A DNA stretch of 64,000 nucleotides from an uncultured Pseudomonadota bacterium (GCA_963836235.1 CAWIIP010000002.1:960001-1024000), one strand, 5' to 3'. Numbered from the stretch's first letter, positions 6,758 through 64,000 are shown. Made by a program: numbers and translations. The notes: a model not told the origin generated them from the sequence alone.

Positions 6758-6758
6758 C

Positions 6759-27900: not shown

Positions 27901-29102
27901 GCTGGGACCGGCGTGGCGGTCGGCGTATAAGTAGGTCCTCCGGGCGTTGGCGCACAGCCATATCCATTCGCGGCGGCCAGCCAACTGATGACCGAAACGC
28001 CATGGAAGGAAGTGCCCGTAAATGGTAAGGAAGTCAAACTCGTATTTATGACAGGGATTGAAGTGGATTCTCCTATAGACCAAGCAGTAGCGCTTAAGGT
28101 AATTCCGGCTTGATTTCCGCCATTCAACCAGGGAATAAAGCTTGTATCAAAAGCGATGCCGCCATCAGGCGCGGTATCGCTACCACCGGGGCCGGGACCG
28201 AATTCCCCAACCATGATGGCATAGGTACTGGCGAAGGAACCGACATTGGTATTCCAGGAGCTAGTGCTGATGCCATAATTGTCGTCATAAAGGTGGGCGT
28301 CATAAAGAATTCCATTGCCGCTTCCGGTATCCGTTAAGACATCACCGGGAAGTAAATTAGTGAAGGTTTGGCAATAATTAAGACCTCCGACGATGACAAC
28401 GTTGTTGGCGGTAGCAGTGGAATTGTTGGAGAGGGGTGTACCAAGCCCAGCCGCTGCTCTGACTGTAGCTAAAAGAGATTTGAACCCCGGGGTGGTAAAC
28501 CCCTCGTTCGCCGTTCCGCCATTCAGCCAAGTGCCGCCGGAACTAGGAAAGGGTTCATTGAAGAGATCAAAAAGCACGGCAGGATTATTGGCGTAGCGGG
28601 CCGCCACGCTGGTCCAAAAAGCTGTGCTGTTGCTGTCGGGCATGGAATATTGCTTGGTAGCTTGACCCGGGGATCCCTCACCAGACCAATGCAGGTCCAA
28701 AATGACATAAGCACCGTTTTCAGAACAGAGGTTGACGATGGAATCTACCAAATCCCGGTAGCTCCAAGTAAAGGTATTCCAACGGTCCTGGCTAAGGGGA
28801 AGACGGATGACATTGGCTTTCCAGGTGTTAATGGCATAGTTGATGGAGGCGGTGATTCCGCCACTCGAGGGACCATCATTATTACTAAACTCCAACCCGT
28901 CCACATCCACGCCCTTCAGGATGACGGTACAGCCGCCACTGGCTTCAACGATTCGGTTTCCAGAGATTTTAAGTTGGGGCGGTGCGGCCCATACTAAAGC
29001 GGGGAGTAAAATTCCAGAAAGGATGCCCAATTGAATGAAAAAAAACTTCGCCCGAAAAAAGCGGGGTTTGGTTTGAATCGATTTTTGGAACTTACTTTTC
29101 AT
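24912..29102 (-). CDS. Secreted GH5 endoglucanase-like protein with CBM11-like domain, long Thr-rich stalk, Ig-like module and C-terminal sorting-like domain
   Basis: [26 protein letters not shown]; CBM-like FWIDNV; about 490 aa T/S/N/P repeat; tail VYPNP...[10 protein letters not shown]...LASGLYY...KLLLLR. Confidence 0.85.
25911..26174. repeat. 132-bp near-perfect tandem duplication within the Thr-rich stalk
   Basis: GGCGCTATTCGC starts copies at 25911 and 26043; the block GTCGTTGTTTTAGTTTCCGTATTCGAAG occurs three times. Confidence 0.85.
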
Positions 29103-36870: not shown

Positions 36871-36992
36871 AACGGGTTTCCTTTTTTAATAGGTTTTAAA
36901 GGGGGCTTAGTATAGCAGGATGTTTTAAAAGTCCAATGCGGGCTGTTTTTGGAACAGGACGGGAGTAATAATTCAAAACCGTTCGTTTAAAT

Positions 36993-37022
36993 AAAAAAGC
37001 AGCTTGCCTTACGGAAAGCCGC
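36993..37022 (-). terminator. Intrinsic terminator closing the barrel/lipoprotein operon
   Basis: Minus strand GCGGCTTTCC-GTAA-GGCAAGCTGC followed by TTTTTT. Confidence 0.65.
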
Positions 37023-37038
37023 CTTTACTTTTTATCCA

Positions 37039-37881
37039 TCAATAAAACTGAACGTTATCAAACCAGAAATCGGTGTAAGTCGTCGAGCCCGCTCCATTAT
37101 CCCCGAACTTCCACAAAAGAAAAAGAACCTGTTTCTCAAACATGGGATTGGAGAGAAAAGCCGTGTTTTGATAATTTCCATAACCCGCATCCGTTTTGAA
37201 GCTGCTAAAAAGAAAGCTCACGGGTTTCCAACCGTCATTGACCGCGGGGTTCGTGGCCGGAAGATTAGCGGAAGTCCAAAAATAGTTGTAACAATTATTG
37301 CTAAAGTTTGGCGGACAAGTCCCTCCCTGATCGGTCGTGGGTGGAACCATGGGAGCGGATGCGATAGCAAACCGCTTTTGGGGATTATTGTCTCCTACCG
37401 TCACTCCCCCGGCCGTGCTATAGGGAAGTATTTTGACATCGAAGCGGATTCCGGTAAAAGAGGTTTGGGTCAGATCATAGTAGGGATTCGCGGCGTCATT
37501 TTTCATGAATCCGAAAACTTCCATAGCTGGATAGGTTGTTGGCAGGGGGTCGGTCTGCGGCCCGTAAATATGGACCGCATAAGCGCTTCCATCGCCTGGA
37601 TTAGGTATCAGGATATCGGGATTTTGGCTTCCATCGATCAAGTTGGCATGGCCTGCGGCACCACCATAGGTTTCCGAAAGGAAGTAGCCGCCATCGCCAT
37701 TTAAAAGAGTGGGGTTCATATTGAGCGTACCATTACTAAAATCGCTGATCACGCCTGAAGGCAAGGGAGTTGGGACGACCGCTGGTATGGCCGGCAGGGT
37801 TCCTTTACATCCCCCGGATAATAAGGCCATGGACAAAACAAGCAGGGTCAAAACCCCAAACCCAATCCATTTTTTTTTCAT
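37039..37881 (-). CDS. Lipoprotein with CBM11/CIA30-like beta-sandwich domain
   Basis: Lipobox LSGG-C; FTGIRF, GGTC...CYNYF, FWFDNVQFY. Confidence 0.65.
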   Translation of the reverse strand: MKKKWIGFGVLTLLVLSMALLSGGCKGTLPAIPAVVPTPLPSGVISDFSNGTLNMNPTLLNGDGGYFLSETYGGAAGHANLIDGSQNPDILIPNPGDGSAYAVHIYGPQTDPLPTTYPAMEVFGFMKNDAANPYYDLTQTSFTGIRFDVKILPYSTAGGVTVGDNNPQKRFAIASAPMVPPTTDQGGTCPPNFSNNCYNYFWTSANLPATNPAVNDGWKPVSFLFSSFKTDAGYGNYQNTAFLSNPMFEKQVLFLLWKFGDNGAGSTTYTDFWFDNVQFY

Positions 37882-37921
37882 GAAAAACCCCCTCACGCCA
37901 TTAACTTAAGTCTACCACGAA

Positions 37922-38827
37922 TCAATAAAACTCTACCTGATCTATCCAAAGGTCAAGGGTACAGGTTCCCGGAGAATTATTGCGCCCTTCTTCCCATTGA
38001 AGCCAAAGTACCTGTTGAAGATTTACTCCGCTCAAAGTGGGTGGATTGGGTATAGCGCCCGCCACCAATTGGTGAAGGTCGCTGAATAGGTAGTTAAACT
38101 GTTTCCACTCCCCCCCAGTACCAGCGCTGTAATCAGCCGCAAAATGGTCGTAGCAAAGCTTTGGTCCCGCTGTACAGCCGCCGCCGCCCGCCACGGCCTG
38201 GGTCTGATAGACCGGAATGGAAAAAGTCCGGTGCAACGCGGTATCCCCAGGGCCAACCTTCATCATAAACTTGACCCCCGTCCAAGCACTCGCGTCATAA
38301 AAATTTCCTCCCTCGAATTGGGCTTGAAGGTCGACGGAGGGATATTCAAAATCTCCCAGGTCAGTAACGGCCCCATTCTCATGAAAGGCGTACCCGTCCC
38401 CGTTTGCTCCGAGGAAATCCGCGTCACTGCCGATAGTGACAAACGCGGAAATCGAACTATTCCATAGTATCGCTTGAAGTCCTGGCCCCTGGACGTTGCC
38501 TGTAGTAACGGCTTTCGCTAAGGTTGGAAAATTATTTATCACCATAAAAGCTGCCTTATTTGTGGAAGTAACAAGGGGAGGTTCATCTTTTAAGGTATAA
38601 GTAGGTGGGTTATTCAACTCGAACAGATTGCTATTAATATATTGCCATTCGTTGGAATTAAACTGATCTATCCGGCTCTGGTTATTGACCGCAGCGGGCA
38701 TGTTATAAGCTCCTACCGGAGCGGCACTGCTGTTGCATCCCAGAATGAGTGTAATACTGGCGGACGCAAGAACCCCAGCCAAGGCGAGAACCCAGGTTTT
38801 CGACAATAAATTAAAATTGGATGGCAT
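37922..38827 (-). CDS. Lipoprotein with CBM11/CIA30-like domain
   Basis: Lipobox LILG-C; YDASAWTGVKF, GGGC...CYDHF, FSDL, LWIDQVEFY. Confidence 0.65.
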   Translation of the reverse strand: MPSNFNLLSKTWVLALAGVLASASITLILGCNSSAAPVGAYNMPAAVNNQSRIDQFNSNEWQYINSNLFELNNPPTYTLKDEPPLVTSTNKAAFMVINNFPTLAKAVTTGNVQGPGLQAILWNSSISAFVTIGSDADFLGANGDGYAFHENGAVTDLGDFEYPSVDLQAQFEGGNFYDASAWTGVKFMMKVGPGDTALHRTFSIPVYQTQAVAGGGGCTAGPKLCYDHFAADYSAGTGGEWKQFNYLFSDLHQLVAGAIPNPPTLSGVNLQQVLWLQWEEGRNNSPGTCTLDLWIDQVEFY

Positions 38828-41252
38828 AGGTCACCTCCATGAATTGGTTATATAAAGTCCCCGGCAGGGCCTGCCCCACGTAAGGGAGTGCGTTGCCCCA
38901 AGTTAACCCGTAGTCGAAATAAAGCGTGGAGTTCCGGTCCATTCGGAAATCTTCCGAAAGCTTCCAGCTTTGGCGGCTGCCGTTGATATTGAAAGCCGTA
39001 TAGCCCACGCTTAAATCCGTATTATCGAATTGATAAGCGTAACGGGCCAAAGTCGTCCCTCCATAACCAGCCTCGGTACCGTTGATCTGTTCGACTCCGA
39101 AGGAAGCCGCCGTTTCCCACCAGGAGAATATTTCCGCCTGAATCCCGCCCAAAATCCAGTCGCTGGTCAGGGACCCGATGGCGCTGCTGGTTTGTTCATA
39201 CCGCACGTTGAACCCGATTTCTAGGTCGCCCGGAAGCCCGGTTGAGGGCGCCAAGTTGAACGAAGGCCCAATATTTACGTATTTAAAAGTACGCATCGGG
39301 TTAGGCACTCCCGCCACCGCGTCCACCGACACATAGCCCGTAGCTGGCAGGTTCACTACAAGGTTATCATTGATTTCCTGGACAAAGTAGACCGAGCCTG
39401 GAATTTTCAAGGCGTCCTTGTCCGTGGCTTTCACGTCAAAATCAAACCCGATCCCCTCTCGGTTGGGAGTCGCCAACCCGTAAGGGAAGGTATTGTCCTG
39501 GGTCCGGTCGTAAAAACCGAAAATACCACCGGCCCGGGGAACGTTGGAAAGAAAGAACTGGCTGCGAAGAGGAACGGATAAAAGATCCGGCGTGGCGGCG
39601 CCGTTGTAGAGGGACGCCGATCCCGGTTGGATGTCATCCTGGCGGGTCTGGGCCAAAGGAGAAAAATAGTTGGGGCCAACGTTCAAGTAATTAAAGGTGA
39701 TTTTGGAATGCCCAAAACGGAAATAAGGGCCGGCGAGGATGGCGTAATCGCTGACATCAGTTGAAGGATTCATCTTGTCGTCTTTGTAAGTGGAGAAAGC
39801 CCCTTCCCAAGTACCGCCAAACCCAGCGTCACCTTGTAATCCCACATCGAACGAAGGTTTGAAGCTGGAAATGACATATTGGTGGGCCCAGGTGGTTGGA
39901 TTAAAAGGCGAGTAGGGCGATCCCGGCTGCTCGCTGTAAATCGGCTCATCCAGCATAATCCCGTAGGCGTCGAGGGCCAATTGGAGCGAGAACCCGCCCA
40001 GGTACCAGCGCTTCAATTTAACTTCAGTATTGGCGGCGAAGATCCAATCGGTAAAATCCCCCGGGCCAAAGTAACTGCCCCCGCTGGCGTTATCGTTGAA
40101 CCCGCTGCGGATCATATTAGCCATGCCACCGACCTTGAAACGGTCGATAAAGGAGGAATCGGGCCAAAGAATATCCGTGCCGATCCTGAGACCCCTAAAG
40201 GGCCAATTGGGCTCGTCGTTCAGGAAGCTTTCGTATTTCGTGAAGTCATCTTCCCTCGCGATCATTTCGGGTTTGTAGCGCAAGTCCAGGTTATCCCTGT
40301 TCCACATCGTGAGCGGGGTATAGGACTCGTTGAAGTCTCCGACCGTGGCCGAAAGCCAGGGTGGGTTGAACTCCATATTAATTCGCCGGGCGACAAGCGA
40401 ATCGATTCCGACATTTGCGTCGGACTCAAAGGCCGATTCATAACGGATGATGGCATCCCACCGGATCTGTTTATCCACGATACCCACCGGTTCAAAATCA
40501 AGAAAGCCGAGGGCTGAGCGGGAGGAAGGGGTTAGGAACGAAAGTGCCTGGCTGTCACCATAATATTGCTGGGAGATCCCATAGGCCCTTCCCAACCCGT
40601 GCCAGCTGATAGTGGGATATTCGGTGATACCCATAATCCGCTTCCAAAGGTCATATTGCTTATTTTCCAGGTCGGCCTGGCGGTCCTGAAGGGACTTCAT
40701 ATCGCCCTGCACTCTTTTTAATTCATATTGATAGGCCTCTTCCAAACTGGACAAAGTGGCTTCGGCCTTGATCAGATCGTCCTGGCTTTCACTTTTGATT
40801 GGAGAAACGTAGGAAGGTGTGGCTGTAGGAACGGCAACGGCCGGAACCTCGGTCGGGGAAGCCGCCACAACAGGCGCTGGAAGTGGAGCCGATGGAGGAA
40901 CTGCTACTTCAGGAACCGCGGGAGGCGCCGGAGCGGCCGCGGGGCTTGAGGCGGAGGGAGCCGAGTTATCCGATGCCGGAGGCGGGGGGATGTCATCCGC
41001 CTGTGCCAATACAATTTCCTTCAGGTTCTCCCGAGCTTGAAAAACCAATCCAGCTACCTCCATTCGGGTCAAGGGAGCGGGAGAATTTTCGGTGGGCAGC
41101 AGGCCCGCCTGTTCCAACTGTTCAAGCTGGGCATAAGTGGGATCCCCTGTCGGGACTACCGGTGACGATCCGACGCCGGGAACCGTGGACGCCAAGGCGC
41201 CGGTCCCGAGGGCCATCAGGAGGAAAAGGTAAAGTTTAGAAATGCGCTTCAT
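38811..41252 (-). CDS. OmpM-like outer-membrane protein (SLH-like, Pro-rich, coiled coil, beta-barrel)
   Basis: Signal peptide; YAQLEQLEQAGLL...LTRMEVA SLH-like segment; LEEAYQYEL coiled coil; ends VTYAIQF. Confidence 0.65.
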   Translation of the reverse strand: MKRISKLYLFLLMALGTGALASTVPGVGSSPVVPTGDPTYAQLEQLEQAGLLPTENSPAPLTRMEVAGLVFQARENLKEIVLAQADDIPPPPASDNSAPSASSPAAAPAPPAVPEVAVPPSAPLPAPVVAASPTEVPAVAVPTATPSYVSPIKSESQDDLIKAEATLSSLEEAYQYELKRVQGDMKSLQDRQADLENKQYDLWKRIMGITEYPTISWHGLGRAYGISQQYYGDSQALSFLTPSSRSALGFLDFEPVGIVDKQIRWDAIIRYESAFESDANVGIDSLVARRINMEFNPPWLSATVGDFNESYTPLTMWNRDNLDLRYKPEMIAREDDFTKYESFLNDEPNWPFRGLRIGTDILWPDSSFIDRFKVGGMANMIRSGFNDNASGGSYFGPGDFTDWIFAANTEVKLKRWYLGGFSLQLALDAYGIMLDEPIYSEQPGSPYSPFNPTTWAHQYVISSFKPSFDVGLQGDAGFGGTWEGAFSTYKDDKMNPSTDVSDYAILAGPYFRFGHSKITFNYLNVGPNYFSPLAQTRQDDIQPGSASLYNGAATPDLLSVPLRSQFFLSNVPRAGGIFGFYDRTQDNTFPYGLATPNREGIGFDFDVKATDKDALKIPGSVYFVQEINDNLVVNLPATGYVSVDAVAGVPNPMRTFKYVNIGPSFNLAPSTGLPGDLEIGFNVRYEQTSSAIGSLTSDWILGGIQAEIFSWWETAASFGVEQINGTEAGYGGTTLARYAYQFDNTDLSVGYTAFNINGSRQSWKLSEDFRMDRNSTLYFDYGLTWGNALPYVGQALPGTLYNQFMEVTYAIQF

Positions 41253-43491
41253 AAGTGAATCTCCAGATATTATCGTATTGCTGATAGCTTGGGTTTTCGG
41301 GCCAGGCGTAGGTGGTAAAAAAGTAATCCCCCCGGAAATTAATGCTGTCGCTTAGTGGATATTTAAACCCAAAAGCCAGGGTGGTCCGGGTAATGTCAAG
41401 GGATTGGGGTAGGAGACTATAGTTAACATCAATGTTGTTGTAAGCAGCGTTATCCTCAAAAAACGGATACTCACCCAAAGAAGTGGGGTTTCCATATCCA
41501 GTTAATATGTACTCCGACCCAGCCGAGGTCGTCCGTTCTAAGGCCGCAGACCAAATCACTGGGGTGATGATCGGAATGGGAATGTTGAAATCGGTTGCGA
41601 GGATAAGGGTATTGACGGTGAGGGAATTAACCCCGTCGCCCAAATCGGTGGTCTGGTGCTTGTAATCGAATTGGAAGTCATAGGTCCTGGATTTCATGGA
41701 GAAGGCCTTATCCAAGGATACTGTCAGGGCCGCCTCATAACCACCAAAGGTTCGGATCGTCGGGTCACCAAGAGCCAACACACCTGTACCAAGCTGGTTG
41801 AGAATGTAATCCGGCTGTATTTCATGAAAACCGCTCAACACATAAGAAGCTTGGGGTTTCAACCAGCCATCCTGTCCGATATCGGCAGAGAATCCGAGGA
41901 CTGTTCCTTCCCGGTTGGGGGTGGCGTCCCCATAAGGAAGCCTGTTTTCCGACAAGACATCAAAAGGCGCGAAAGAGGGTCGGTTGACATCCTGAAAGAC
42001 GAAGTTATTGAGGTACCCCGGCAAGGCATCGTCGATACCGAACATATTCGTGCTCAGGTAGTTTTGGAAACCTGCCAGAGGAGTGAAGGCGTTGGTTTGG
42101 GCACCGGGCGAGTAAAAATAAGGACCGATGCTCAGGTATTTGGCCGTGAAATGTGCGCCCAGGATGTTCAAGGACCCTTCCGCCACCATACCCCAATCCT
42201 CGAAAACCCGATTGTTCGCCAGGGGATCATTGGTTGTGTCGTCATATTGGGTAAAGGCCTTCTCCACCGTACCTGTTAGGTTTACCTTGTCGGCAAAAGG
42301 CAAGGTGACCCGCGCGTCCAAGCTTCCGATCTGGTATTGCTTGGCAAAGGTCGATGGAAAATCGGGGAGATAAGGTACGTTGGCGCTACCAGGATCCTGC
42401 CAGAGGAGTAACCCAACCCCTTTTAATTCCACGTTATCGCCCAGGAAGCTCAGGGAGTCTTGGCTCCCCGCGTAATAACTGGCGAAAGTAGAAGTCGTGG
42501 CGTCCTGCAGAGTCCCCGCCATGGCCTGCAACCCGAAACCGCTGAGAACGTCTTTCGACCAATCCCTCCCAGAAGCAAGTTGGAAGCCTCGCATATGCCA
42601 ATCAGGAGCATGATCCATATAGACCAGTTCCTCCGTGTCGATGCGGTTTCGATAGAAGGAAGTGGGTTCAATGAGGGTGTAAACCGGAGAGCCAGAGTTC
42701 CAAAGGGTGAGCGGGGTGTAGCTCTTAAAAAAGTCGCCGGCGGTCAGGTTGACGACCTCGTTGGTGTTAGAAAGGGAAAGCCACCTCAACTGGTACTCGG
42801 GCTGGATGGGATCCTGGTAATACATACCGATGGACCGCCAAAACCTTAAACGGGCTTCGAACAAAACATCAGGGACCGGAACGCTCTTCAAATCCATTTC
42901 CATAAAGATATCAGCGTTGTAATCCATGGGCGGATAGGCTGCGTCAGCTCCGAAGCCTCTGTAATTGTACATGTAGCCCCTGGAAAAGCCGTTCACGTCC
43001 GTTCCGGTGCGTTTCAAATATTCTTTTTGTAGCGCCGCGAAAACCTCGTTCCGGGCCCTGTCATCTAAAAGCTTGTTTTCCAACTGATCGACCTCGATCC
43101 CGAGGGTTGTCAATTCGGTCCGAAATTCTTCCACCAGCTCTTCCAAACTTTTGGCCGCTTGATCGGCTCCGGCGGCGGGAAGGGGGGCCATGCCCGGCAA
43201 ATCCATGCCGCCCGGCAGAGCCGGAGGCGCCGTGTCCAGAGGAGGAAGCCCGTTGGCTTGGGCCATCATCTCGGAAGCTTGGGCCGTCAAACCTACCACT
43301 TGGAAATTGGTCAGTTGGTCAACGGACTTTCCCGGATCTGAAACCAGCCCCGCGGCTACGAGGTCGGAAAGGCTCGTGTTGATCCAAGGATCCCGTTGCG
43401 TGGAGGACAAGGGACCGTGGGCTGCAAAAGCCGGGCAAGTGGCTACCGTTAAAAACACGGTCATTAAATTTTTTAATAGTCTTCGGTTCAT
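41236..43491 (-). CDS. OmpM-like outer-membrane protein
   Basis: Signal peptide; degenerate SLH; LEELVEEFRTELTTLGIEVDQLE resembles the OmpM stalk signature; ends FTYEAHF. Confidence 0.65.
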   Translation of the reverse strand: MNRRLLKNLMTVFLTVATCPAFAAHGPLSSTQRDPWINTSLSDLVAAGLVSDPGKSVDQLTNFQVVGLTAQASEMMAQANGLPPLDTAPPALPGGMDLPGMAPLPAAGADQAAKSLEELVEEFRTELTTLGIEVDQLENKLLDDRARNEVFAALQKEYLKRTGTDVNGFSRGYMYNYRGFGADAAYPPMDYNADIFMEMDLKSVPVPDVLFEARLRFWRSIGMYYQDPIQPEYQLRWLSLSNTNEVVNLTAGDFFKSYTPLTLWNSGSPVYTLIEPTSFYRNRIDTEELVYMDHAPDWHMRGFQLASGRDWSKDVLSGFGLQAMAGTLQDATTSTFASYYAGSQDSLSFLGDNVELKGVGLLLWQDPGSANVPYLPDFPSTFAKQYQIGSLDARVTLPFADKVNLTGTVEKAFTQYDDTTNDPLANNRVFEDWGMVAEGSLNILGAHFTAKYLSIGPYFYSPGAQTNAFTPLAGFQNYLSTNMFGIDDALPGYLNNFVFQDVNRPSFAPFDVLSENRLPYGDATPNREGTVLGFSADIGQDGWLKPQASYVLSGFHEIQPDYILNQLGTGVLALGDPTIRTFGGYEAALTVSLDKAFSMKSRTYDFQFDYKHQTTDLGDGVNSLTVNTLILATDFNIPIPIITPVIWSAALERTTSAGSEYILTGYGNPTSLGEYPFFEDNAAYNNIDVNYSLLPQSLDITRTTLAFGFKYPLSDSINFRGDYFFTTYAWPENPSYQQYDNIWRFTYEAHF

Positions 43492-43555
43492 CCCGATCCC
43501 AATGATTCTTTTTTATTACAACTCTCTACTAACCGTGAACAACGGCTAACCACCC

Positions 43556-46225
43556 TTAAAACAGGAACTTAAGCCTACTGAAATATTGGTCTCCTTGATA
43601 ATTATTGGCCGAAACGTAATTGTCCTGAAAATCGATGTGCTTGTAACGGAATTCGAATTTTCCGCTGCACCAGGGGATGTCATAAGCAAAACCCAAACCG
43701 AAGGCATGGGTGAGGTAATCCACTTGTGGATAGGTGTAAGCGGACTTCCAGGTTTCCACTCCCAGGTCCGCCATCAGGTCGATGTCGTGCAATACATTGA
43801 TCATCACGTCTGCGTCCCAAACCTTTTGATCGAACAAGTTAGGAATATTGGCGGAAAGGGCGGAGGGGTTAACGGAAGTCGAATAACTGCCGGTCAGGTT
43901 GGTGACCGCGTTCGAAGCGGCCCCAGAAACCTGGTTGTCGGTCATATAAAAAGTGCCATCAATGGGGGACTGGATTCCCATCCACTTGTTCAATTGAATC
44001 TTGGTTGTAAAAGTAAAATAGTTATACGTTTTGAGGTCTGTAATATTGGCATATTGGTTGACGGTGAGTTTGGAACCGCTTGCTTGCGTTATCGTCGTGG
44101 TGGCAATGGCCTGTCCGGCGGTTTGGGGAGTCAGGCTCAGGGTTCCACCGTTGTTGTAGATAGGAAGAATCAGCGGCAGGCGCTCCGAACTGAGGCGGAA
44201 CTGGTAGCGCACGTCGTCGTTGGAAATGTCATTGTCATTACGAAGGGTCTCGATATTATTGATATAGTCCTGCCGGAGCGGGTTCACGTTGGGCGCATAG
44301 TTCCCCCACAAGTCCAAGCCCCAAAGCCCTTCGTCGTCGGGGTAATAAAACCTCAACATAGTGAAAGGCTCAATCACGTTGTAACCCAGGGGATCGAGTT
44401 CGGCCACGCTTTCCTTCTTTTGGGTGAGGTCAAGGTTGACGACGATGGCGTCCAGGAAACTCGGCCAGTCCTTCATCCAAGTCTGCTTTCGGCCATTCCA
44501 CCCAAAATTAAACCGCCATCCGTAGCGGTCGCTTTGGAGGGTATCCGCCTCGGCTACGGCGCCATAAACGTCGTTGAAATCGCTGGGATTCCAGGCCATT
44601 CCATAATGAAAAAAGTTAATGCCGCTCATCATGACCCGGCTTTGGAAGTCCGCGTAATTCGCCCCCATGGAGAAGGCATAAAGGGTAAATGGATAAAAAA
44701 GCAGGGAGGCTTGGCCAGCCCCGTCTTCGATATATTGATGGCTTGCTTTGAAGGCATAGGAAGTTCCGTCCAACGCGTTTGTCGAGCTTGAATAGGCCGG
44801 CCCCACATAGACGCCTCCGTCGGAGAAATCGGATAATCCACCGTTGAGTTCAAGAAAGAAGGGGTCCAAGTTCACCTTCACGTCGGCGGCATAGTCCCTC
44901 AAATCCAACTGGGGCGATTGGTTGACGCCGAAATTATCGTTGATCCATTCGGTGGAAACCGATGTGCGGACAAGGTTGTTGGACCAAGGCTCGTCGATCT
45001 TGACAGCCTCTTCCCACCTCTGGGTCTGGGTAGGGCTGGTTCCCATGCGCCCTGCCAAGACGGTCATGCGGGCGTCCTGGCCCAACCAGGGAACTTGCTG
45101 GCCCACGGCATAAACGCCGTCGAACACCCGGTCCGTAGCGGACTGGACATTTCCGGCGCTAGGGGAATAGGCGGGGATATAGCTGACAGCTGTCATGTAA
45201 TCATCCCAATTCTTGGCGTTCTTGTCGTCATTGAAGTTTTTGATGTCGAAGGGGTCCTCGAAGCGTTTGATGGCATAGGTGGCAAAGCCCCGGCTGAAAT
45301 TATCCAGGGTGGTGCTGGGGTTGTAGGTCTCCACTGCGAAGGTGGTGTCCCACTTGCCCAAATCCCCATAAAGGAAGAAGGTGGTGCTGGGATTGGCGAT
45401 ATAGATGGATGCGGGCGCCGTCCCCACCCCGGTAGCGACGACCCCGGAGGCGTTCGAATATGGCACAATGGCTCCGAAACCGGTGGAAAGAGTCCCCTTT
45501 CCTCCCAGATCGGAGTACATCCCCATATCGATTTGCTGAACCTCCCGCATGGCGTTGTTCAAGGCGGGCGCTCCGTTGCTCAAGGGTCCGGTGACATTGA
45601 TATTTTCGAACCGCATACTTGTGTTCTCGTAAAAATGAGGCATCCCCACCGATTTATTGGCCTTCTTCCAGACGGCGTCCACCTCATCCTGCGCGGCTTT
45701 CAACTTATCCAGCTCGTCCTCCTGCTGTTGAACGCGGGTATCGTTCAAAGCCATTTGGGTACGGAGATAGGCCGCGGAGTCGCGAAGCTGTTTCAAGAGA
45801 TCATCGATTTCTTTTTTAAGCGTGTCGGAAATAACAGGTGTTGGCAGGGCGGGAACAACGGGAGGGTTTGAAGGAAGAAGAGTCGGGACCGTCATCGCCG
45901 GAGTGGCGAAAACGGGCAAGGGGGCCGGAGCTGAAACCTGGGGTGTAGGTGTCGGCAATGTGAATTCAGGGGCGGATATGCGGGCTTTGGCTTTCTCCGT
46001 ATAAAAAGCCAGTTCGAGCCTCGTGACATACTTGCCTTGATCCAACACTTCCTTATCTTGTGCGTCCAGCAGGCCATAATCCCCTAGTTTTTTCACCCGC
46101 TGATAAAGGGTTTGATCCGGTCCCAGTTCCTCCCAAGGATTGGCCCAGGCATAAGGAGTGTTTAGGGCCATTGTGAACGCAAAAAAGGAAAGGGCGGCCC
46201 ATAAAATTTTGACCTTTAATTTCAA
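43556..46225 (-). CDS. OmpM-like outer-membrane protein
   Basis: ANPWEEL...LYQRVKKLGDYGLLD...VTRLELA SLH-like segment; Pro-rich spacer; coiled coil; ends SRLKFLF. Confidence 0.65.
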   Translation of the reverse strand: MKLKVKILWAALSFFAFTMALNTPYAWANPWEELGPDQTLYQRVKKLGDYGLLDAQDKEVLDQGKYVTRLELAFYTEKAKARISAPEFTLPTPTPQVSAPAPLPVFATPAMTVPTLLPSNPPVVPALPTPVISDTLKKEIDDLLKQLRDSAAYLRTQMALNDTRVQQQEDELDKLKAAQDEVDAVWKKANKSVGMPHFYENTSMRFENINVTGPLSNGAPALNNAMREVQQIDMGMYSDLGGKGTLSTGFGAIVPYSNASGVVATGVGTAPASIYIANPSTTFFLYGDLGKWDTTFAVETYNPSTTLDNFSRGFATYAIKRFEDPFDIKNFNDDKNAKNWDDYMTAVSYIPAYSPSAGNVQSATDRVFDGVYAVGQQVPWLGQDARMTVLAGRMGTSPTQTQRWEEAVKIDEPWSNNLVRTSVSTEWINDNFGVNQSPQLDLRDYAADVKVNLDPFFLELNGGLSDFSDGGVYVGPAYSSSTNALDGTSYAFKASHQYIEDGAGQASLLFYPFTLYAFSMGANYADFQSRVMMSGINFFHYGMAWNPSDFNDVYGAVAEADTLQSDRYGWRFNFGWNGRKQTWMKDWPSFLDAIVVNLDLTQKKESVAELDPLGYNVIEPFTMLRFYYPDDEGLWGLDLWGNYAPNVNPLRQDYINNIETLRNDNDISNDDVRYQFRLSSERLPLILPIYNNGGTLSLTPQTAGQAIATTTITQASGSKLTVNQYANITDLKTYNYFTFTTKIQLNKWMGIQSPIDGTFYMTDNQVSGAASNAVTNLTGSYSTSVNPSALSANIPNLFDQKVWDADVMINVLHDIDLMADLGVETWKSAYTYPQVDYLTHAFGLGFAYDIPWCSGKFEFRYKHIDFQDNYVSANNYQGDQYFSRLKFLF

Positions 46226-46274
46226 AAAAACCCCTGTTATTGGTTATCCATCAAAAACCCTCTGCAATATTTCG

Positions 46275-47051
46275 TCAAAAGAATTCGATTTCATCAACCC
46301 AATAATCAATTTTATAAGTTCCGGCGTGGTTATCGCCGCTATGATCCCACTTAATATAGATGAACTCTTTCAAATGATCGGTCAAATCCGGGGGAGTCAC
46401 AGGTGATCCCCAGCCCGATTCTCTTTTCAAATCGGAGAAGACGTAACTTTTAGAGATCCAATCATTGGAAGGATCCATCATGGCCCCAAAGTGGTTATAG
46501 CAATCGCTTTGGCAGGTTCCCCCGTCGGAACCCGGAAGGGTCGCGGCGGTTCCGATTCCAAAACGCCGTTTCATCGATTGGTCGTCCGCTGGGCATTTAT
46601 AATAAAATTTTATTCCGGTAAAGGCGCTGGCGTCGTAATAACCGCTGTCCTTAAACTTACCTTGGAGGGTGAAAGCTGGATAAACCGCGTTCCCCTGGTC
46701 CACCAAGCTTCCAAAAACATGGGCCGCCATCTTGGTTCCGTTGGCCCCACCCGCGACTATGAAATCGCTATTGATGGTGTTACCGCCGAAAGTAATCGTG
46801 GTCCAAGCGCCCGAGGCACCCCCATAAAGTTTAGAATTGATATTTTTGGAACCATCATCAAAGTTGGAGATAAGGCAGGCTTCCGAGGGAATATTCACTT
46901 TAGGTTTGTTGGCATCGGCGTTCTGCAAGCCCTGACCTAGGGAAGCGTATTTAGAACCCTCATTTACAAACACCGCTCCACAACCCGCAACGAGAGAAAT
47001 GATGGTGAAGCCGATTAACACGGAAGAAAAGCGGCCCGAACCCATATTCAC
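46275..47051 (-). CDS. Lipoprotein with CBM11/CIA30-like domain
   Basis: Lipobox LVAG-C; ISNFDDG, YDASAFTGIKF, GGTCQSDCYNHF, FSDL...GWG, YWVDEIEFF. Confidence 0.7.
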   Translation of the reverse strand: MNMGSGRFSSVLIGFTIISLVAGCGAVFVNEGSKYASLGQGLQNADANKPKVNIPSEACLISNFDDGSKNINSKLYGGASGAWTTITFGGNTINSDFIVAGGANGTKMAAHVFGSLVDQGNAVYPAFTLQGKFKDSGYYDASAFTGIKFYYKCPADDQSMKRRFGIGTAATLPGSDGGTCQSDCYNHFGAMMDPSNDWISKSYVFSDLKRESGWGSPVTPPDLTDHLKEFIYIKWDHSGDNHAGTYKIDYWVDEIEFF

Positions 47052-47376
47052 CCCTTCAAGGAAAAATGGCCGGCCAAAGATGCCGGACCGGTTTAAAAAA
47101 GGATTAGTTCTAAGTTACTTATGCCAATATCCGAAAGGGATTTCGGCGTTTTAAGTATTGTGTCTTTTATTAACTTGGATGAATGGCCTTCGCAACATTT
47201 TTGAAACCTGCAAAGGTGTCAAAGCCCCGGTATTCTACTAAAAGGATTTATAACCTGGTACCTATTTTTTACTAGGCGAAAACGGAACCGGTTTTTATGC
47301 CCCAACTAAAATCATCCGTCGTTTCCCTTGAAAAAACCGTTTTTATGAAACGTTCAACAACCAGGATTGTTCTTAA

Positions 47377-50300
47377 TCAATGATGATCATCGTCAAGAAT
47401 TCCCTTGGACTCGGCGGTTCCATCATCTTCGTTGGATAGTTTCCTGTCCGTTGGTTTCACGCTTGAAGAGGATGAAATTTTTTTCATATAAGAAAAATCG
47501 AAAACCCTCAAAGATTGACCAGGTTTTTCCACCATAACGGCCGCCATATAGCGGTTGTCCCTGTCCGGCTGATCCTCCTTGGGTATATTCACAAACAAGC
47601 TTTTCACGAGCACCCTATTGCCCGAAGGAACATCAAAAGGACCAACCGTAGCCAAATCGACGTAATAATTTTTCAAGGTGTCGATTTGGTGTAACACCAA
47701 TCCCTTCAGGTTTTCGGGAGAGTTATTGCGAATTTCCACGCTAATGGGTACCGGAACACCCGCTGGAATTCTTTTGGGAGCGGTCAAAGATACTTCGATA
47801 GGCGAAAGTCCCTCGACTTGTTGCAAGGTCGAAAAAGCTTTTCCACCTGATATGGCCCATTCCATGGAACTATAAGGCCCCCGGACGCCATAAATAATCC
47901 GGTAAAGGTCGTGCCAAAACATTCCCAATCCTGAGTTTACCCCAAACCAATTGTGGAAGGTGTCAACTTCCCGGTCGTAAAGTTCTTCCGGTCCCGGTGG
48001 ATCGATGGATTTTTGAACCCAGTTAAAATCTACCATTTCCCCCATGGCGTACATTCCGTTCGATCGGGAGAGGTAACCCGGCCACTGTTTCTTCATGGAA
48101 GCCATGGTGCCACGGTCACCCTCGTAAAGCATAATGTGGTTATAATTGACCCCAGCATCAATGAACATGGCAGGATCCTGCCCATGTTGGTGTCCCATTT
48201 GCCATCCCAAAGTAAAGGTAAAAACCGGCTTGGACATCTTGGCCTCATCGAGAATGCTTTTTAAAGTCATGGCCACTTTATGGGCCCGCCACCATTGAAA
48301 GAGTTCCACTACTTGAGGATCTTCTTTTTGTTCAACTGTTTTAGCCAACCAGTGGATGCGCTCCTGTTTAGAAAGGGATAAGAAATTATCGGGTTCCGGC
48401 ACATTCAAATCTTTCACGAATTCATCCACCATTTCATACCCTGCCGTACCCGTGCGTACATAGTCCATGCCCACCATATCGATGTCGGGGTCCTTATCCA
48501 ACTCTTTGAGGAAATTGACAATGTCTTGGTGGCGCTTGGAATCCTCCAGAGAAATAAAACGGTTTTGTACGACAGAATCGGTATCCGGATCATAACCCAA
48601 CGAGAATTCGTAAGGCGCTTGGTTCCAAGCGTCCCCGACGACCTTAAATGTTGTCATATAACCCCCGAATTTAAGTCCCGCGACATGGGCGGCTTTGGCA
48701 TATTTGCGCCCCACTTCCATATCGCCGCGGCTAAAGGGAAAATCCTTGGCATTCAAGTGATCCCAAATGGAGGTTTGCCCCATGAGGTAACAATAAGCGT
48801 TCGCGCCCATGAATTGGGCCCACTCAATCGCATTGGAAGCCGTAAGGGAATCACTCCCATCCAACGCTGGAACCGCTCCTCTGATTAACTGCTTACCTCC
48901 TTCCATCGTCAAAGCCGCGTATCCCGGGTAAAGGCCGTTGGGTTTCAATGGAGATAAGGTAAAAGCGGACTCAAAAACCTTTGGTGATCCCCATCGGGGG
49001 GATGTTACCGTGACCTCGGCAATATAAGTTCCTGGAACCGGGTTATAGGGGATGGGCCAATTGCCCGCGAACTTTTTCGAATCCATGTCTCTTTTTAAAT
49101 TTAATTTAGACTGCCCATCCACCATGTTCACCGGTATACCGTTGTGGAAAACCTCGACCACCGCTTGCATTTCAGGAAAAGATGAAATTTCATCCTGGTT
49201 TAATCGTACCTCGAAAGGAACCATCTCAAATCTTAAGTAATTCCTTGTCGGCATAACCGCAATGACGTCGGGGATCATTTGTGAAACCATGGGAACCAAA
49301 AGGCCCATTCTTTTGGACTGGGGAAGAAGGGTTGCCTTGGCCCAAAAAAGCCCACCTCCAATAAATAAAGCTGCGGTTAAGGCCCACCGAAACGAATTCC
49401 GGCCTCGAAACCAACGCGGAATCTCAGCTATAGGAATCTGGGGCGCCGGAAATCTCCATTCCGACTGAGGTTGGGAGTTTGGAACTTCAACAAAAGGCAT
49501 GGGTGAGGTCGACGTTAGGGGCGTCGATTCGGTGAAAGTGGGCTTCAAAAAGGATTGAATTAATTCCCCTTCAGAAAGGGGCGCTGAAGGCGAAACGGCA
49601 TCTTCAACAACCCCACTTAGTTCTTGGACGCTGGTAACTTCTTCTCCACGTTCCACAACAGTTGTTTCTATCCTGGCAATGAAGGTTTCGGCGGGAATGG
49701 ATCTGTTCTGGACCGGAGGCGGATTGGGGGATTTACGTTGAAAAGCAGAACGAATTTTCATGGTGAAAATTTTGAACTTTTCATGAACAAAAAGAAAAGT
49801 TCTATCTCCTATAGAAGTTCTCTTTTGAGTAAATGGCCCCGGACCTTTGGACGTTTTTTGAGTCGATCCGGTTATCTTTTCGACGGCTTCCGCAGAAACC
49901 TTACCCCCGGACCGAAAAACAGAACCCGTTCCCCTTCCTAAAATCCGGACTCCGACGAACAAAACCGCCAGGATGGAAAGGATAAGTCCGAATGCCGCTC
50001 CAAGCTGCTGGCCGACAGCGTGAAAAAGATTGGAAGTCTTTTCCTTGAATGCGTTGAAGTTAGCGGAAATATTCAAGGAAACTGGTTCAACGGGTTTCGA
50101 TAAGCGGAATGGTTCTAACTCGGGTTGGTTGACCGGCGCCGCGACTTCCTGCGGCAATGGGTTTTCGCGAGTGAGACGGACAACCGCCTCCACATGATAG
50201 GTTTGGGGAAACATATCCAAAGGTTGGGCCCAATCCACAACGTAACCATGCTTTACCAACAACGCGAGATCCCGCGCCAAAGTGGAGGGATCACAAGAAA

Positions 50301-51600
50301 CATAAACCAGGCGCTCGGGATGGAACGCCGTCACTCTGGCCAGCACTTCCGGCAAGACTCCCTTTCGGGGGGGGTCCAAGATGGCTGCGTCAATCTGCGT
50401 CAGCCCTTTTTCTTTCAATCCCAGCAGGATGGGAGCCACGTCCCCTTCCAGAAAATCAATGTTGGACCGGTGGTTGAGTTCCGCGTTGATCTTAGCGTCT
50501 TCTACTGCCGGTCCGATTTCCTCCACCCCCACCACATAGTCGGATTTTTCCGAAACCGCCATGGCCAAGGTGCCGATGCCACTATAGAGATCCAGAATCG
50601 TTCCCCATTTTTTCTTGTGGATCGGGTCACCGAGAGCTTCCCTGACAATTGTATGAAGCATATCGGCTTGAAGCGTATTGACTTGAAGGAAGGACTTCAG
50701 CGAAACCTTTAGTTTTAGGTCATCAATGATTTCAAAATAATGATCGCGCCCCGCCAGGGTTCGGGTAGCCTGCCCAAAAACAATATTCGTTCTGGAGGCA
50801 TTGATATTTTGCAAAACTCCCACCAAGCCGGGCGTTTCTTCCACCAACTCTCGAGCGATTCGGGGAAGGATCCCCTCCAGTTCCTCGGGCATCAACGAGG
50901 CCTTTTGAACCCTTTCCTCTGGGACTTCAGTCCGGGTGACAAAAGCCAAAAGAAGTTCCCCGGTTTTGACCCCCTGCCGAACAGCCAAATGTCGAAGAAA
51001 TCCTGCGTGTTTTTTTTCTTGGTAGGGTGTCAGCCCCGATCGGTCGATCTTTTTGAGGACTTTTTGGATGAAGTCATTGATGGCGTCCCCCTGGATGGGA
51101 CATGTGTGGTAGGGGACCAAATGATGGGAACGGGGTTCGTAAATCCCAGAAACAAAATGCCCCTCCCGCATGGAAAGAACCGGCATGGCCTTGTTGCGAT
51201 AGGCAAAAGGCGAAGGTGAGGGCAGGCAAGGCTGGACGGTAACATTCTCAAGGCGGCCGATGCGCTTGAGAGCGTCCACAACGAATTGCCGCTTGGTTTG
51301 AAGTTGTCGGGGATAATTAAAATGTTGCCACTGGCACCCGCCGCATTCCTCAAAAATATCGCAGGGCGGTTCCACCCGGTCCGGCGAACGCCTTAACACG
51401 GAAAGAATTTCCGCCGTGGCGTAATGGTCCTTGACTTGCGTAATACGGGCCTTCACCCTCTCGCCCGGTAAACCACCTGGAACAAAAATAGCGAAATCCT
51501 GATAACGCCCAACTGAATCGCCCCCAAAAGCAAGGGAGGAAATTTCAATCTCAATTTGATCCCCGTGCCGAACGGGTTTAACGACACCGGTATTGTTCAT
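47377..51600 (-). CDS. rlmD: 23S rRNA m5U methyltransferase RlmD fused to a membrane-anchored glycosyl-hydrolase-like domain
   Basis: TRAM domain, C...CGGCQWQH, SFLQVN, LDPPRKG, YVSCDP.TLARD and DMFPQTYHVE in the first ~480 aa; then a linker, a TM helix and a TIM-barrel-like region with DYVR. Confidence 0.8.
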   Translation of the reverse strand: MNNTGVVKPVRHGDQIEIEISSLAFGGDSVGRYQDFAIFVPGGLPGERVKARITQVKDHYATAEILSVLRRSPDRVEPPCDIFEECGGCQWQHFNYPRQLQTKRQFVVDALKRIGRLENVTVQPCLPSPSPFAYRNKAMPVLSMREGHFVSGIYEPRSHHLVPYHTCPIQGDAINDFIQKVLKKIDRSGLTPYQEKKHAGFLRHLAVRQGVKTGELLLAFVTRTEVPEERVQKASLMPEELEGILPRIARELVEETPGLVGVLQNINASRTNIVFGQATRTLAGRDHYFEIIDDLKLKVSLKSFLQVNTLQADMLHTIVREALGDPIHKKKWGTILDLYSGIGTLAMAVSEKSDYVVGVEEIGPAVEDAKINAELNHRSNIDFLEGDVAPILLGLKEKGLTQIDAAILDPPRKGVLPEVLARVTAFHPERLVYVSCDPSTLARDLALLVKHGYVVDWAQPLDMFPQTYHVEAVVRLTRENPLPQEVAAPVNQPELEPFRLSKPVEPVSLNISANFNAFKEKTSNLFHAVGQQLGAAFGLILSILAVLFVGVRILGRGTGSVFRSGGKVSAEAVEKITGSTQKTSKGPGPFTQKRTSIGDRTFLFVHEKFKIFTMKIRSAFQRKSPNPPPVQNRSIPAETFIARIETTVVERGEEVTSVQELSGVVEDAVSPSAPLSEGELIQSFLKPTFTESTPLTSTSPMPFVEVPNSQPQSEWRFPAPQIPIAEIPRWFRGRNSFRWALTAALFIGGGLFWAKATLLPQSKRMGLLVPMVSQMIPDVIAVMPTRNYLRFEMVPFEVRLNQDEISSFPEMQAVVEVFHNGIPVNMVDGQSKLNLKRDMDSKKFAGNWPIPYNPVPGTYIAEVTVTSPRWGSPKVFESAFTLSPLKPNGLYPGYAALTMEGGKQLIRGAVPALDGSDSLTASNAIEWAQFMGANAYCYLMGQTSIWDHLNAKDFPFSRGDMEVGRKYAKAAHVAGLKFGGYMTTFKVVGDAWNQAPYEFSLGYDPDTDSVVQNRFISLEDSKRHQDIVNFLKELDKDPDIDMVGMDYVRTGTAGYEMVDEFVKDLNVPEPDNFLSLSKQERIHWLAKTVEQKEDPQVVELFQWWRAHKVAMTLKSILDEAKMSKPVFTFTLGWQMGHQHGQDPAMFIDAGVNYNHIMLYEGDRGTMASMKKQWPGYLSRSNGMYAMGEMVDFNWVQKSIDPPGPEELYDREVDTFHNWFGVNSGLGMFWHDLYRIIYGVRGPYSSMEWAISGGKAFSTLQQVEGLSPIEVSLTAPKRIPAGVPVPISVEIRNNSPENLKGLVLHQIDTLKNYYVDLATVGPFDVPSGNRVLVKSLFVNIPKEDQPDRDNRYMAAVMVEKPGQSLRVFDFSYMKKISSSSSVKPTDRKLSNEDDGTAESKGILDDDHH

Positions 51601-63259: not shown

Positions 63260-64000
63260 TTAAGACCGCGTCAAAATAAACTTATCCCTCTTTACCACGT
63301 TCCCATTGCGTTGGACCACGTAGAAATAAATGCCCGAGGCCACAGGCGACCCCTTGGTATTGAGTCCGTTCCAATCGTATTCCCCACCGGAGACCGTGAC
63401 TTTTTGAACCAGTTCTCCCGATAGCGTGAAAAAAGAAACCATGTCATTGGGTTGCAGGCAATCCATTTTGAAGAAGCCTCCGAAGGCAGTCTTGGGATTG
63501 TAAGGAACGGGCCAAACGTGGATGACGCAAACAGGTGTTGGGGTCGACGTAATCGTGGGGCTGGGCGTCGGGGTAAGCGTTGGAAGGCTGGAAAAGATCA
63601 TGCCCGCGGGATAGCTGTAGGCATCGCGTACGTCAAACCCATAGGATTCCACTCCAAAGGGCTGAGGCCCCGAAAGTTGGTGAAACCCGGTGCCGATCGT
63701 CACCTGGGCGCTGGAGTAACCGCTAGCCCCCACGGCCGTGAAACTGCCGGGAGGAAGGGCCGTGCCATCCAGCAAAATTAATCCCACCGCCGAATTGAGG
63801 GCCGCCACATTCAGGAAATTATAGGTGAAGCCAGTGGAGGGGGCGACCGTCTGATAGGTAGTCCCATAATCCGAAATCGGCGGCACGGTGATTTCACTCG
63901 GGTCGGCCATGGCGACCCCACCATAGGTGGCACCCTCATAGGCATGGCTGTTGGAATATTGCACCACCAGAATGGGGGCTGTCGCCGTGACGTAAGAAGC
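63260..64000 (-). CDS. Secreted protein (5' truncated by the window edge) with IgGFc-binding-like domain, PT linker and FlgD-Ig/T9SS-like tail
   Basis: Frame open to the window end; PILVVQY, DPS..VPP, PFGVESYG; tail VWPVPYNP...FFTLSGELV...WNG...VASGIYFY. Confidence 0.7.
   Translation of the reverse strand, partial: ASYVTATAPILVVQYSNSHAYEGATYGGVAMADPSEITVPPISDYGTTYQTVAPSTGFTYNFLNVAALNSAVGLILLDGTALPPGSFTAVGASGYSSAQVTIGTGFHQLSGPQPFGVESYGFDVRDAYSYPAGMIFSSLPTLTPTPSPTITSTPTPVCVIHVWPVPYNPKTAFGGFFKMDCLQPNDMVSFFTLSGELVQKVTVSGGEYDWNGLNTKGSPVASGIYFYVVQRNGNVVKRDKFILTRS

Follow-up and report, generated by a model that had tools for sequence, protein, structure and literature searches.

The element described here is a six-gene cassette at positions 37039-47051 of a 64,000-nucleotide (nt) stretch of DNA (GCA_963836235.1, CAWIIP010000002.1:960001-1024000; hereafter the window, with positions counted from its first letter). 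The source organism is an uncultured soil/peat bacterium of candidate division FCPU426, represented by a metagenome-assembled genome (MAG). The cassette encodes three large proteins, B1, B2 and B3, flanked by three smaller proteins with a lipobox, LpA, LpB and LpC, as listed below from open reading frame (ORF) calls and their translations.

46275-47051, minus strand: LpA, 258 amino acids (aa), lipobox Cys24, upstream of B1
43556-46225, minus strand: B1, 889 aa, signal peptide, C-terminal Phe
41236-43491, minus strand: B2, 751 aa, signal peptide, C-terminal Phe
38811-41252, minus strand: B3, 813 aa, signal peptide, C-terminal Phe
37922-38827, minus strand: LpB, 301 aa, lipobox Cys31
37039-37896, minus strand: LpC, 285 aa, lipobox Cys30, the third lipoprotein
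36985-37032, minus strand: closing hairpin and T run, directly 3' of LpC

These six minus-strand ORFs fill 37039-47051, as stated in a preliminary description of the window made by a model from the sequence, which had six co-oriented genes in the order lipoprotein, three barrels, two lipoproteins. Gaps of 49 nt (LpA/B1), 64 nt (B1/B2) and 25 nt (LpB/LpC) separate the genes at three junctions, and the two 17-nt overlaps claimed earlier were both recovered from the ORF coordinates, at B2/B3 (B3 start, B2 stop) and at B3/LpB (LpB start, B3 stop). The terminator formerly placed at 36993-37022 was found again as the closing hairpin and its T run, with a folding energy of -16.9 kcal/mol and a z-score of -3.56 (0 of 200 shuffles as good); it was absent from the output of a simple terminator scan. 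A second, GC-rich hairpin with a T run, at 47070-47086 on the minus strand between a fusion gene lying upstream and the LpA start, may be a terminator of the upstream gene or an attenuator of the operon. A look for RNA sequencing runs that contain the operon brought up none among those listed. In single-protein scans none of the six cassette proteins matched any Pfam or NCBIfam family, and single-protein sequence searches against PDB, Pfam and NCBIfam returned nothing usable.

B1 comprises a signal peptide, an S-layer homology (SLH)-like domain with a TRLE motif, a Pro-rich linker, a coiled coil, a C-terminal domain of ~690 aa and a final Phe, and B2 has the same type of architecture with an SLH-like motif that is without Arg (TNFQ). 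B2 and B3 are homologous along their full length (hhalign E 8e-69); what B1 has in common with B3 is the N-terminal region only (hhalign probability 98%, E 1.8e-13). An AlphaFold2 (AF2) model of B3, built from a 36-sequence alignment, had a mean predicted local distance difference test (pLDDT) score of 74 and a predicted TM-score (pTM) of 0.67, with pLDDT >= 70 at 559 of 813 residues, and was divided as follows.

41001-41162, minus strand: SLH-like domain of B3 (residues 31-84), small and helical, TRME motif, pLDDT 76-82
40635-40784, minus strand: long helix of B3, presumed coiled-coil stalk (residues 157-206; DSSP helices 157-166 and 170-206, pLDDT 61-70)
38814-40613, minus strand: beta-barrel domain of B3 (residues 214-813), ~22 long strands (214 to 812)

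Residues 85-155 were modelled as a disordered Pro-rich linker, and the two helices directly precede the first strand at residue 214; heptad-like segments of similar length occur in B1 and B2. The barrel carries three conserved motifs, GDF..SYTPLT.WN, NVGP.Y.SP.AQT and FPYG.ATPNREG. Fold matches of the model were to outer-membrane barrels (VIA Z 12-14.7), including FimD (14.7), OprD/Occ (13-14), the OmpM1 structure 8bym (13.0), AlgE (12-12.7) and SlpA 8ae1 (12.1). The expectation that the large proteins would model as beta-barrels was thus borne out for B3, and because many barrel types score alike, the modelled protein is assigned to the large plug-less outer-membrane barrels without a particular known family. 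The C-terminal domain of B1 is likewise a putative barrel. The absence of a TonB plug, claimed earlier, held up in that, at E<=1, the Pfam models for Plug, TonB_dep_Rec and SusD-like domains matched none of the six proteins, and the N-terminus of each barrel protein is occupied by the SLH-like domain, linker and helix.

The name "SLH-like" rests on profile matches to the stalk of OmpM1. The B3 profile aligned with stalk structure 8bz2 (E 0.0031), TRxE motif included, and the B1 profile matched 8bys_A (E 6e-5) and 8bz2 (E 2.2e-4). The proposed architecture of SLH-like segment, coiled coil and barrel was supported in part by the B3 model and these profile matches, and was left without support from Pfam SLH (PF00395), which had no match at E<=1 in B1-B3. 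In a tally of 38-44 sequences per family, the SLH motif was mostly TR[LM]E in B1 and always contained the Arg in B3, and in B2 relatives it was always T/S/N-N-x-E/Q, with Asn replacing Arg and never an Arg. For the B1 C-terminal domain, the nearest ESM Atlas clusters were unnamed or DUF6029 at 0.94, which is a lead only. A Pfam scan of 38 B1 members gave sub-threshold noise and, in two long orthologues only, tetratricopeptide repeat (TPR) inserts. These TPR repeats (L011:4616-7714, 1033 aa, and L032:4595-7708, 1038 aa; Pfam E down to 1e-7) are apparently inserted in the linker between SLH-like domain and coil, which is there ~250 residues long.

LpA, LpB and LpC are mutually paralogous at 31% identity, and the lipobox Cys is invariant in all 80 aligned members of the lipoprotein family. 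The AF2 model of LpA, built from the alignment of 80 sequences, had a pLDDT of 90.4. Its best fold match was the family 11 carbohydrate-binding module (CBM11) of Clostridium thermocellum, CtCBM11 (1v0a, Z 16.5, rmsd 2.9 A, 161 of 170 residues); against the CBM11 structures 1v0a/6r3m, 161-163 of 170 residues were superposed at 2.9-3.0 A with 17-18% identity, and the top Foldseek matches were 6r3m and 1v0a. The next-best folds were CIA30/NDUFAF1 (Z 15-15.4; 7zkq 15.4) and other CBMs (Z 11-13.5). The lipobox in each small protein (Cys24, Cys31 and Cys30) and, for LpA, the CBM11/CIA30-like domain of the preliminary description both stand on these results. As modelled, LpA is a lipoprotein with a CBM11-like beta-sandwich, and LpB and LpC would belong to the same CBM11-like family by their sequence kinship with it. 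Pfam matches among the 80 family members were few (three CBM_11, best E 1.2e-5, three CBM30 and three CIA30), LpA, LpB and LpC themselves gave no CBM_11 match at E<=1 (0 of 3), and some family members weakly matched folds of surface glycan-binding protein type B (SGBP-B) or Pfam SGBP_B_XBD. Of the three lipoproteins, LpA is conserved best, and LpB is highly divergent between cassettes. Complex prediction for the B3 barrel (residues 207-813) with mature LpB gave an ipSAE of 0.00 in two runs made without controls, which is no evidence either way.

The analysis was extended to relatives of the cassette. In a set of 5.8 billion proteins, 81 relatives of B3 were found, all of them unnamed or "hypothetical" and none with a Pfam domain, and 47 related genomic loci were collected, from MAGs mostly of candidate division FCPU426. 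The order B1-B2-B3 was present in 40/40 loci with enough sequence (the other 7 of the 47 being cut by a contig or locus end), so that the gene order noted in the window proved to be conserved in related MAGs and, since the same order recurs in every sufficiently long locus, the arrangement is not due to chance. LpA lies upstream of B1 in 37/40 loci, a lipoprotein gene is found 3' of B3 in all 40 loci with sequence there, and the LpC position is optional among related cassettes. The 17-nt B3/LpB overlap was retained in 33/40 loci and the 17-nt B2/B3 overlap in 23/42 (naive ORF finder), and this conservation of the overlaps suggests translational coupling. The earlier idea of three barrel-lipoprotein pairs in a 3:3 ratio is weakened, as related cassettes may lack LpC and two of the three barrels are simply copies of one type. 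In two loci (L044:4821-12194 and L045:8809-13399) the barrel genes are split into two to three ORFs each, which are pseudogenes or assembly frameshift errors.

When 99 species genomes from the phylum were scanned, the cassette family was found in all 30 genomes of the source organism's own family and in the single genome of the sister family (1/1), with one weak match in 67 genomes of the other 21 families; each genome carries from 1 to ~5 cassettes. The source genome has a second cassette on another contig with the same six positions, each position being most similar to the same position of the window copy (B1 42%, B2 48%, B3 50-55%, LpA 57%, LpB 37% and LpC 34% identity). Across 35 cassettes the B1, B2 and B3 similarity matrices correlate with r 0.79-0.90, a descriptive value only as the genomes are related, and for 17 of these 35 cassettes a single locus is the nearest neighbour of B1, B2 and B3 alike. 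These two observations point to inheritance and duplication of the barrels en bloc, as judged from sequence comparison. The neighbourhood of the window copy, with a gene for a 1407-aa fusion protein upstream and lepA, lepB, hemN, hrcA, grpE and dnaK downstream, is of a lepA/dnaK type that is conserved in 23/47 loci; because it is shared by these loci, the most distant ones included, the window copy appears to be the ancestral, universally kept cassette of the lineage.

The preliminary description had taken nearby GH5, GH12 and GH-A glycoside hydrolase (GH) genes and a LacI regulator in the window as support for glycan uptake. Housekeeping genes separate the GH5, GH12 and LacI genes from the cassette, and since this neighbourhood is both housekeeping and conserved (23/47), it is a poor argument for a role in glycan use; the paralogous cassettes are a better one. 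A GH or carbohydrate esterase (CE) gene lies <=5.5 kb from 11 of the 17 non-window-type cassettes scanned, and LacI or AraC regulators and sugar-binding proteins stand beside many of them, as in the following loci.

L015, L022, L025, L042 and L044: GH44, with LacI in 4/5 loci and galactokinase in 3/5
L014 and L035: GH31 with PA14, one locus also having a GH29 fucosidase and a sugar-binding protein
L039: GH2 with AraC
L041: CBM11 protein and GH5
L045: acetylesterase with CBM11, plus GH67 and AraC
L026 (orthologue of the source genome's second cassette): sugar-binding protein and GH42-like gene

Upstream of the second cassette of the source genome (L007:1118-4475) are two lipoproteins of 569 and 467 aa with long Thr/Pro-rich linkers and repeated modules that end in ...NMELY or ...NIQVY, reminiscent of the C-terminal strand of the cassette lipoproteins; downstream are a sugar-binding protein of ABC type and a large ORF that is GH-like.

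A second line of comparison came from a B3 profile search of 1.84 billion representative proteins, which gave 286 relatives at E<=1e-3, including 118 that reached E<=1e-10. Many are barrel-only proteins of ~570-600 aa that contain the three signature motifs and are without the SLH-like and coil parts; Pfam scanning of 33 remote barrel relatives found no family over the cut-off. A metagenomic scan with a six-sequence alignment yielded 57 loci (L055-L111) that encode such stand-alone B2/B3-like barrels. In 17 of the 18 metagenomic loci whose gene layout was examined the barrel reading frame was called, and it lies in a fixed operon consisting of an outer-membrane-protein-like barrel "X" (~600-770 aa, ending in ...ELKIFF), a B2/B3-like barrel "Y", a lipoprotein of 320-400 aa and, mostly, a second lipoprotein with two repeated modules. 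Among nine stand-alone loci scanned, seven had genes for GH9, GH3, GH97, GH18 with glucosamine-6-phosphate isomerases (NagB), GH2-like proteins or sulfatases within 3.5 kb, and two had proteins with type IX secretion sorting domains nearby; in L062 (operon at 3666-11949) a gene for GH9 with CelD_N adjoins the operon.

This operon matches the published cluster chu_1276-chu_1280 of Cytophaga hutchinsonii. There, a GH9 endoglucanase is encoded along with two outer-membrane proteins and two proteins of SGBP-B-like type; cellulose induces the cluster, and chu_1276, chu_1277, chu_1279 and chu_1280 are required for cellulose use (PMC12016534). CHU_1279, a protein of 375 aa in which residues W89, F92, F180, Y253, F256 and F343 are named, binds cellulose, the fold of its C-terminal module being closest to CBM11 6R3M (PMC12016534), and CHU_1277 is described as a porin in cello-oligosaccharide assimilation (PMC5553014). 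In L062, L063, L064 and L068 a second lipoprotein of 374-376 aa has all six CHU_1279 residues at the same positions, and these four loci were taken as probable chu_1276-chu_1280-type clusters. On account of this residue match and the type IX secretion C-terminal sorting domains nearby, the stand-alone operons would come from Bacteroidota.

The cassette barrels are related to both barrels of this operon. B2 and the Y family (A8) were aligned by hhalign with a probability of 99.9% (E 1.3e-35, 480 columns); the Y-family hidden Markov model (HMM) matched B3 (E 3.9e-31) and B2 (E 1.4e-23) and had no match to B1, and the B2 HMM matched the Y barrels of L062, L063, L064 and L068 (E 3.5e-18 to 3.8e-22). 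Of 12 cassette proteins, B1 alone was matched by the HMM of the X family (A10), with an E of 1e-7 that refers to this small set. B2 and B3 are thus a duplicated pair from the second-barrel family, at the probable CHU_1277 position, and B1 may be a distant member of the upstream-barrel family, at the CHU_1276 position. The likeness of the cassette lipoproteins to the CHU_1279 type is one of fold. Two statements of the preliminary description give way here: the system is hardly "independently evolved", as its barrels belong to families of an experimentally studied atypical polysaccharide utilization locus (PUL) (PMC12016534), and a described system of similar composition does exist, the Cytophaga chu_1276-chu_1280 cluster having the same barrel families. 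The claim of glycan uptake itself is upheld by this barrel homology and by the carbohydrate-active enzyme (CAZyme) neighbours of the paralogous cassettes, and gains little from the window's own neighbourhood. The available portion of PMC12016534 reports the atypical PUL in C. hutchinsonii as well as C. aurantiaca and Sporocytophaga myxococcoides, three close relatives, only; the present loci suggest that the two-barrel operon is not confined to these three Cytophagaceae and is a general non-SusCD uptake module. Among the papers listed in searches on FCPU426, OmpM tethers, CHU_1276/1277 and atypical PULs, no description of this cassette was found, nor of SLH- or coil-bearing CHU_1276/1277 relatives or of a broad occurrence of the two-barrel module, and no paper came up that joins Goldbacteria with outer membrane and cellulose. 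The accessible text of PMC7031533 links 16S sequences of FCPU426 to the cellulose-binding Goldbacteria.

By analogy with these systems, the cassette would be a wall-tethered glycan capture and uptake module of the chu_1276-chu_1280 kind, rebuilt on an OmpM-like tether and probably forming a B1:B2:B3 heterotrimer, a reading that we hold with modest confidence, somewhat above even. The stalks of B1, B2 and B3 would assemble 1:1:1 into one trimeric coiled coil and the three SLH-like domains would form a wall-binding head that anchors the complex to a cell-wall polymer, duplication of the Y barrel into B2 and B3 having supplied the third chain. At the membrane, LpA, LpB and LpC would capture chains of beta-glucan type or oligosaccharides and pass them on to the plug-less barrels, through which sugars would move without TonB energy, to be finished by periplasmic enzymes and ABC importers. 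The window copy would be the ancestral cassette and the extra cassettes would serve particular polysaccharides. A heterotrimer is proposed because one gene of each barrel is found in fixed order in 40/40 loci with conserved overlaps, and because the SLH motif is position-specific (B2 never Arg, B3 always Arg). Tandem SLH repeats of S-layer proteins are said to be differentiated in a similar way. OmpM is a trimer with a coiled-coil stalk, OmpM1 being a homotrimer, and no heterotrimer is mentioned in the available part of its description (PMC10628300).

Several observations weigh against this reading. The stand-alone operons are equated with chu_1276-chu_1280 indirectly, by the order of their genes, the sizes of the proteins and the positions of six residues; the link of B1 to the X family, which covers the C-terminal two thirds, is weak (hhalign probability 92.9%, E 3.7e-7, 392 columns); and for cassette and bimodular CHU_1279-type lipoproteins the hhalign probability was 43%, so that sequence kinship is not established. 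Covariation of coil and linker lengths among B1, B2 and B3 in 38 cassettes gave no joint-stalk signal, coil lengths being near constant and the proline-based measure crude, and Pfam SLH had 0 matches in the whole genome. The window cassette is without an adjacent GH gene in a neighbourhood that also fits a housekeeping role, and 6 of the 17 paralogous cassettes are without a CAZyme nearby. The genome moreover encodes four OmpA-domain proteins and six TonB-dependent receptors over the Pfam cut-off, with a seventh below it, and tethering and uptake therefore do not depend on the cassette. OmpM proteins, as homotrimers, bind polyaminated peptidoglycan or a pyruvylated wall polymer. A PS_pyruv_trans gene is present in the genome; the family was found in 10/14 control genomes as well, so that it carries little weight.

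The same elements could be a housekeeping envelope module, in which B1, B2 and B3 are the lineage's OmpM-like connectors of outer membrane and cell wall and also act as general diffusion porins, and the lipoproteins are structural accessories, for instance in barrel assembly or stabilization, without glycan specificity. The architecture of SLH-like domain, helix and barrel would suit this, OmpM1 is both a tether and a general porin (PMC10628300), every genome of the family has the window-type cassette, which lies in the conserved lepA/dnaK neighbourhood, and the assembly factor CIA30 scores nearly as well as CBM11 against LpA (Z 15.4 versus 16.5); in the Cytophaga cluster, CHU_1279 variants that bind cellulose weakly still complement, so that presence matters more than binding (PMC12016534). 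Against this, OmpA/Pal-type domains are already available in the genome, cassettes number from one to about five per genome and have diverged, those beside GH or CE genes and sugar regulators make up 11 of the 17 paralogous ones, and the barrel families are those of a cellulose-utilization cluster. Such a housekeeping role, considered for the window's own copy, is judged improbable.

A different question is whether B1, B2 and B3 form separate homotrimers, which would give three tethered channels with the same function and no heterotrimer. OmpM1 is homotrimeric and Veillonella has four paralogues (PMC10628300), and the two barrels of Cytophaga-type clusters are without any coiled coil; the presence of one copy of each gene in fixed order in 40/40 loci, the conserved overlaps that suggest translational coupling, the specific and invariable loss of the SLH-motif Arg in B2 and the inheritance of the three barrels en bloc speak indirectly for mixed assembly, and separate homotrimers seem rather unlikely to us. 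A machine for export or surface display, with barrels that secrete or anchor polysaccharide or surface enzymes and CBM-like lipoproteins that hold the product, is very improbable: among the fold matches of B3 are an usher, FimD (Z 14.7), and an exporter of alginate, AlgE (Z 12-12.7), but porins reach the same values, which are common to large barrels in general, and although one paralogous cassette (L033) stands by rhamnose-nucleotide synthesis genes, no gene for a synthase, a Wza-type protein or an usher partner recurs next to the cassettes. Those relatives that have been studied by experiment function in uptake (PMC12016534; PMC5553014).

The gene directly upstream of the cassette may be associated with it.

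47377-51600, minus strand: upstream neighbour, possibly associated, 1407 aa; in window-type loci a homologue is found on the same strand, directly upstream of the cassette

The fusion consists of a TRAM/m5U RNA methyltransferase (residues 1-480), two hydrophobic segments and a C-terminal domain of ~640 aa, which has no Pfam match and whose protein-language-model neighbours are GHL10/DUF4434/DUF4015 glycoside-hydrolase-like proteins (score 0.88, a lead only). Elsewhere in the window, the minus-strand stretches 11329-18725 and 24912-29102 encode two very large secreted proteins, of 819 and 1101 aa, that carry F5/8 type C (NedA-like) domains, a GH12 protein (411 aa) and a GH5 protein of 1396 aa, with housekeeping genes between these and the cassette. 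A DNA polymerase III alpha subunit (1200-4868, minus strand) has a weak match to a PolC-type N-terminal domain II, in an organism with a lipopolysaccharide heptosyltransferase and OmpA/TonB systems. Tandem DUF1207 proteins (4996-6757, minus strand; 281 and 288 aa) adjoin a GT4 glycosyltransferase, and a protein with a CHU_C type IX secretion sorting domain is encoded at 63260-63967 on the minus strand.

For glycan uptake by cellulose specialists such as Cytophaga, which do without SusCD, free cellulases or cellulosomes, chu_1276-chu_1280 is the leading candidate. The present analysis suggests that many uncultured bacteria of soil, peat and the sea have its two barrel families, encoded beside various GH families, and that in FCPU426 they are universal in one order and joined to an OmpM-like tether, so that plug-less glycan import may be far more widespread than reported. 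PUL prediction based on SusC/SusD pairs would overlook such loci, as the proteins are annotated "hypothetical" and belong to no Pfam family. A wider proposal, which we advance only tentatively and at less than even confidence, is that chu-type modules are a third general class of outer-membrane glycan importer in at least two phyla, and that in FCPU426 fusion to an OmpM-type tether and duplication of a barrel led to one heterotrimeric stalk. If this were true, the class would stand beside SusCD/TonB systems and simple porins and serve many substrates (as in the GH9, GH3, GH18, GH97, GH44, GH31, GH67 and sulfatase contexts), and the complex would be the first heterotrimeric wall-anchored barrel complex, one that might thread polysaccharide into the periplasm without TonB energy while the wall anchor bears the mechanical load. 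Work on the mechanism can draw on concrete, orthogonal material: motifs that are conserved, a naturally occurring fusion suggestive of the stoichiometry, and paralogous cassettes whose predicted substrates differ.

Compared with known systems, the cassette is like the SusC/SusD PULs with their SusE/F-type SGBPs in joining an outer-membrane barrel to surface lipoproteins of glycan-binding type, and in occurring as several diverged copies per genome, each by different GH families and LacI or AraC regulators. It differs in having no TonB-dependent receptor barrel, plug or SusD-like TPR lipoprotein, and its transport is presumably not TonB-energized; a SusCD-like reading was rejected for want of a plug and of a SusD match. 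The CBM11 of C. thermocellum Lic26A-Cel5E (1v0a/6r3m) is the best fold match of LpA, but the cassette proteins are lipid-anchored and stand-alone where CBM11 is an enzyme appendage, and they have no Pfam CBM_11 match.

With OmpM/SlpA proteins (Veillonella parvula OmpM1 8bys, 8bym and 8bz2; Deinococcus SlpA 8ae1) the cassette barrels share the order of a putative SLH-type domain, a coiled-coil stalk and a C-terminal barrel, the B1 and B3 profiles match the OmpM1 stalk, and OmpM is itself both tether and channel. The OmpM barrel, however, is a 16-strand porin, whereas that of B3 has ~22 strands and no sequence match to it, and the fold score of B3 against 8bym (Z 13.0) is no better than those against OprD, FimD and AlgE. 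The cassette proteins also have a long disordered linker between SLH-like domain and helix, are three different chains in fixed order instead of one, leave Pfam SLH unmatched and come from a genome that has OmpA/Pal-type domains as well. True OmpM membership was rejected because the barrel differs in strand number and sequence.

From chu_1276-chu_1280 the cassette differs in the SLH-like domain, Pro-rich linker and coiled coil added to each barrel, in the duplication of the second barrel to B2 and B3, in lipoproteins of one module instead of two with an extra LpA ahead of the barrels, in a window copy without an adjacent GH9 or other GH gene, and in the phylum of the host. In both, genes for two different families of plug-less outer-membrane barrels stand in tandem ahead of genes for lipoproteins with a putative CBM-like beta-sandwich, CBM11 (6R3M) is the nearest fold for LpA as well as for the cellulose-binding module of CHU_1279, and the paralogous FCPU426 cassettes, like the Cytophaga cluster, adjoin cellulase or hemicellulase genes.

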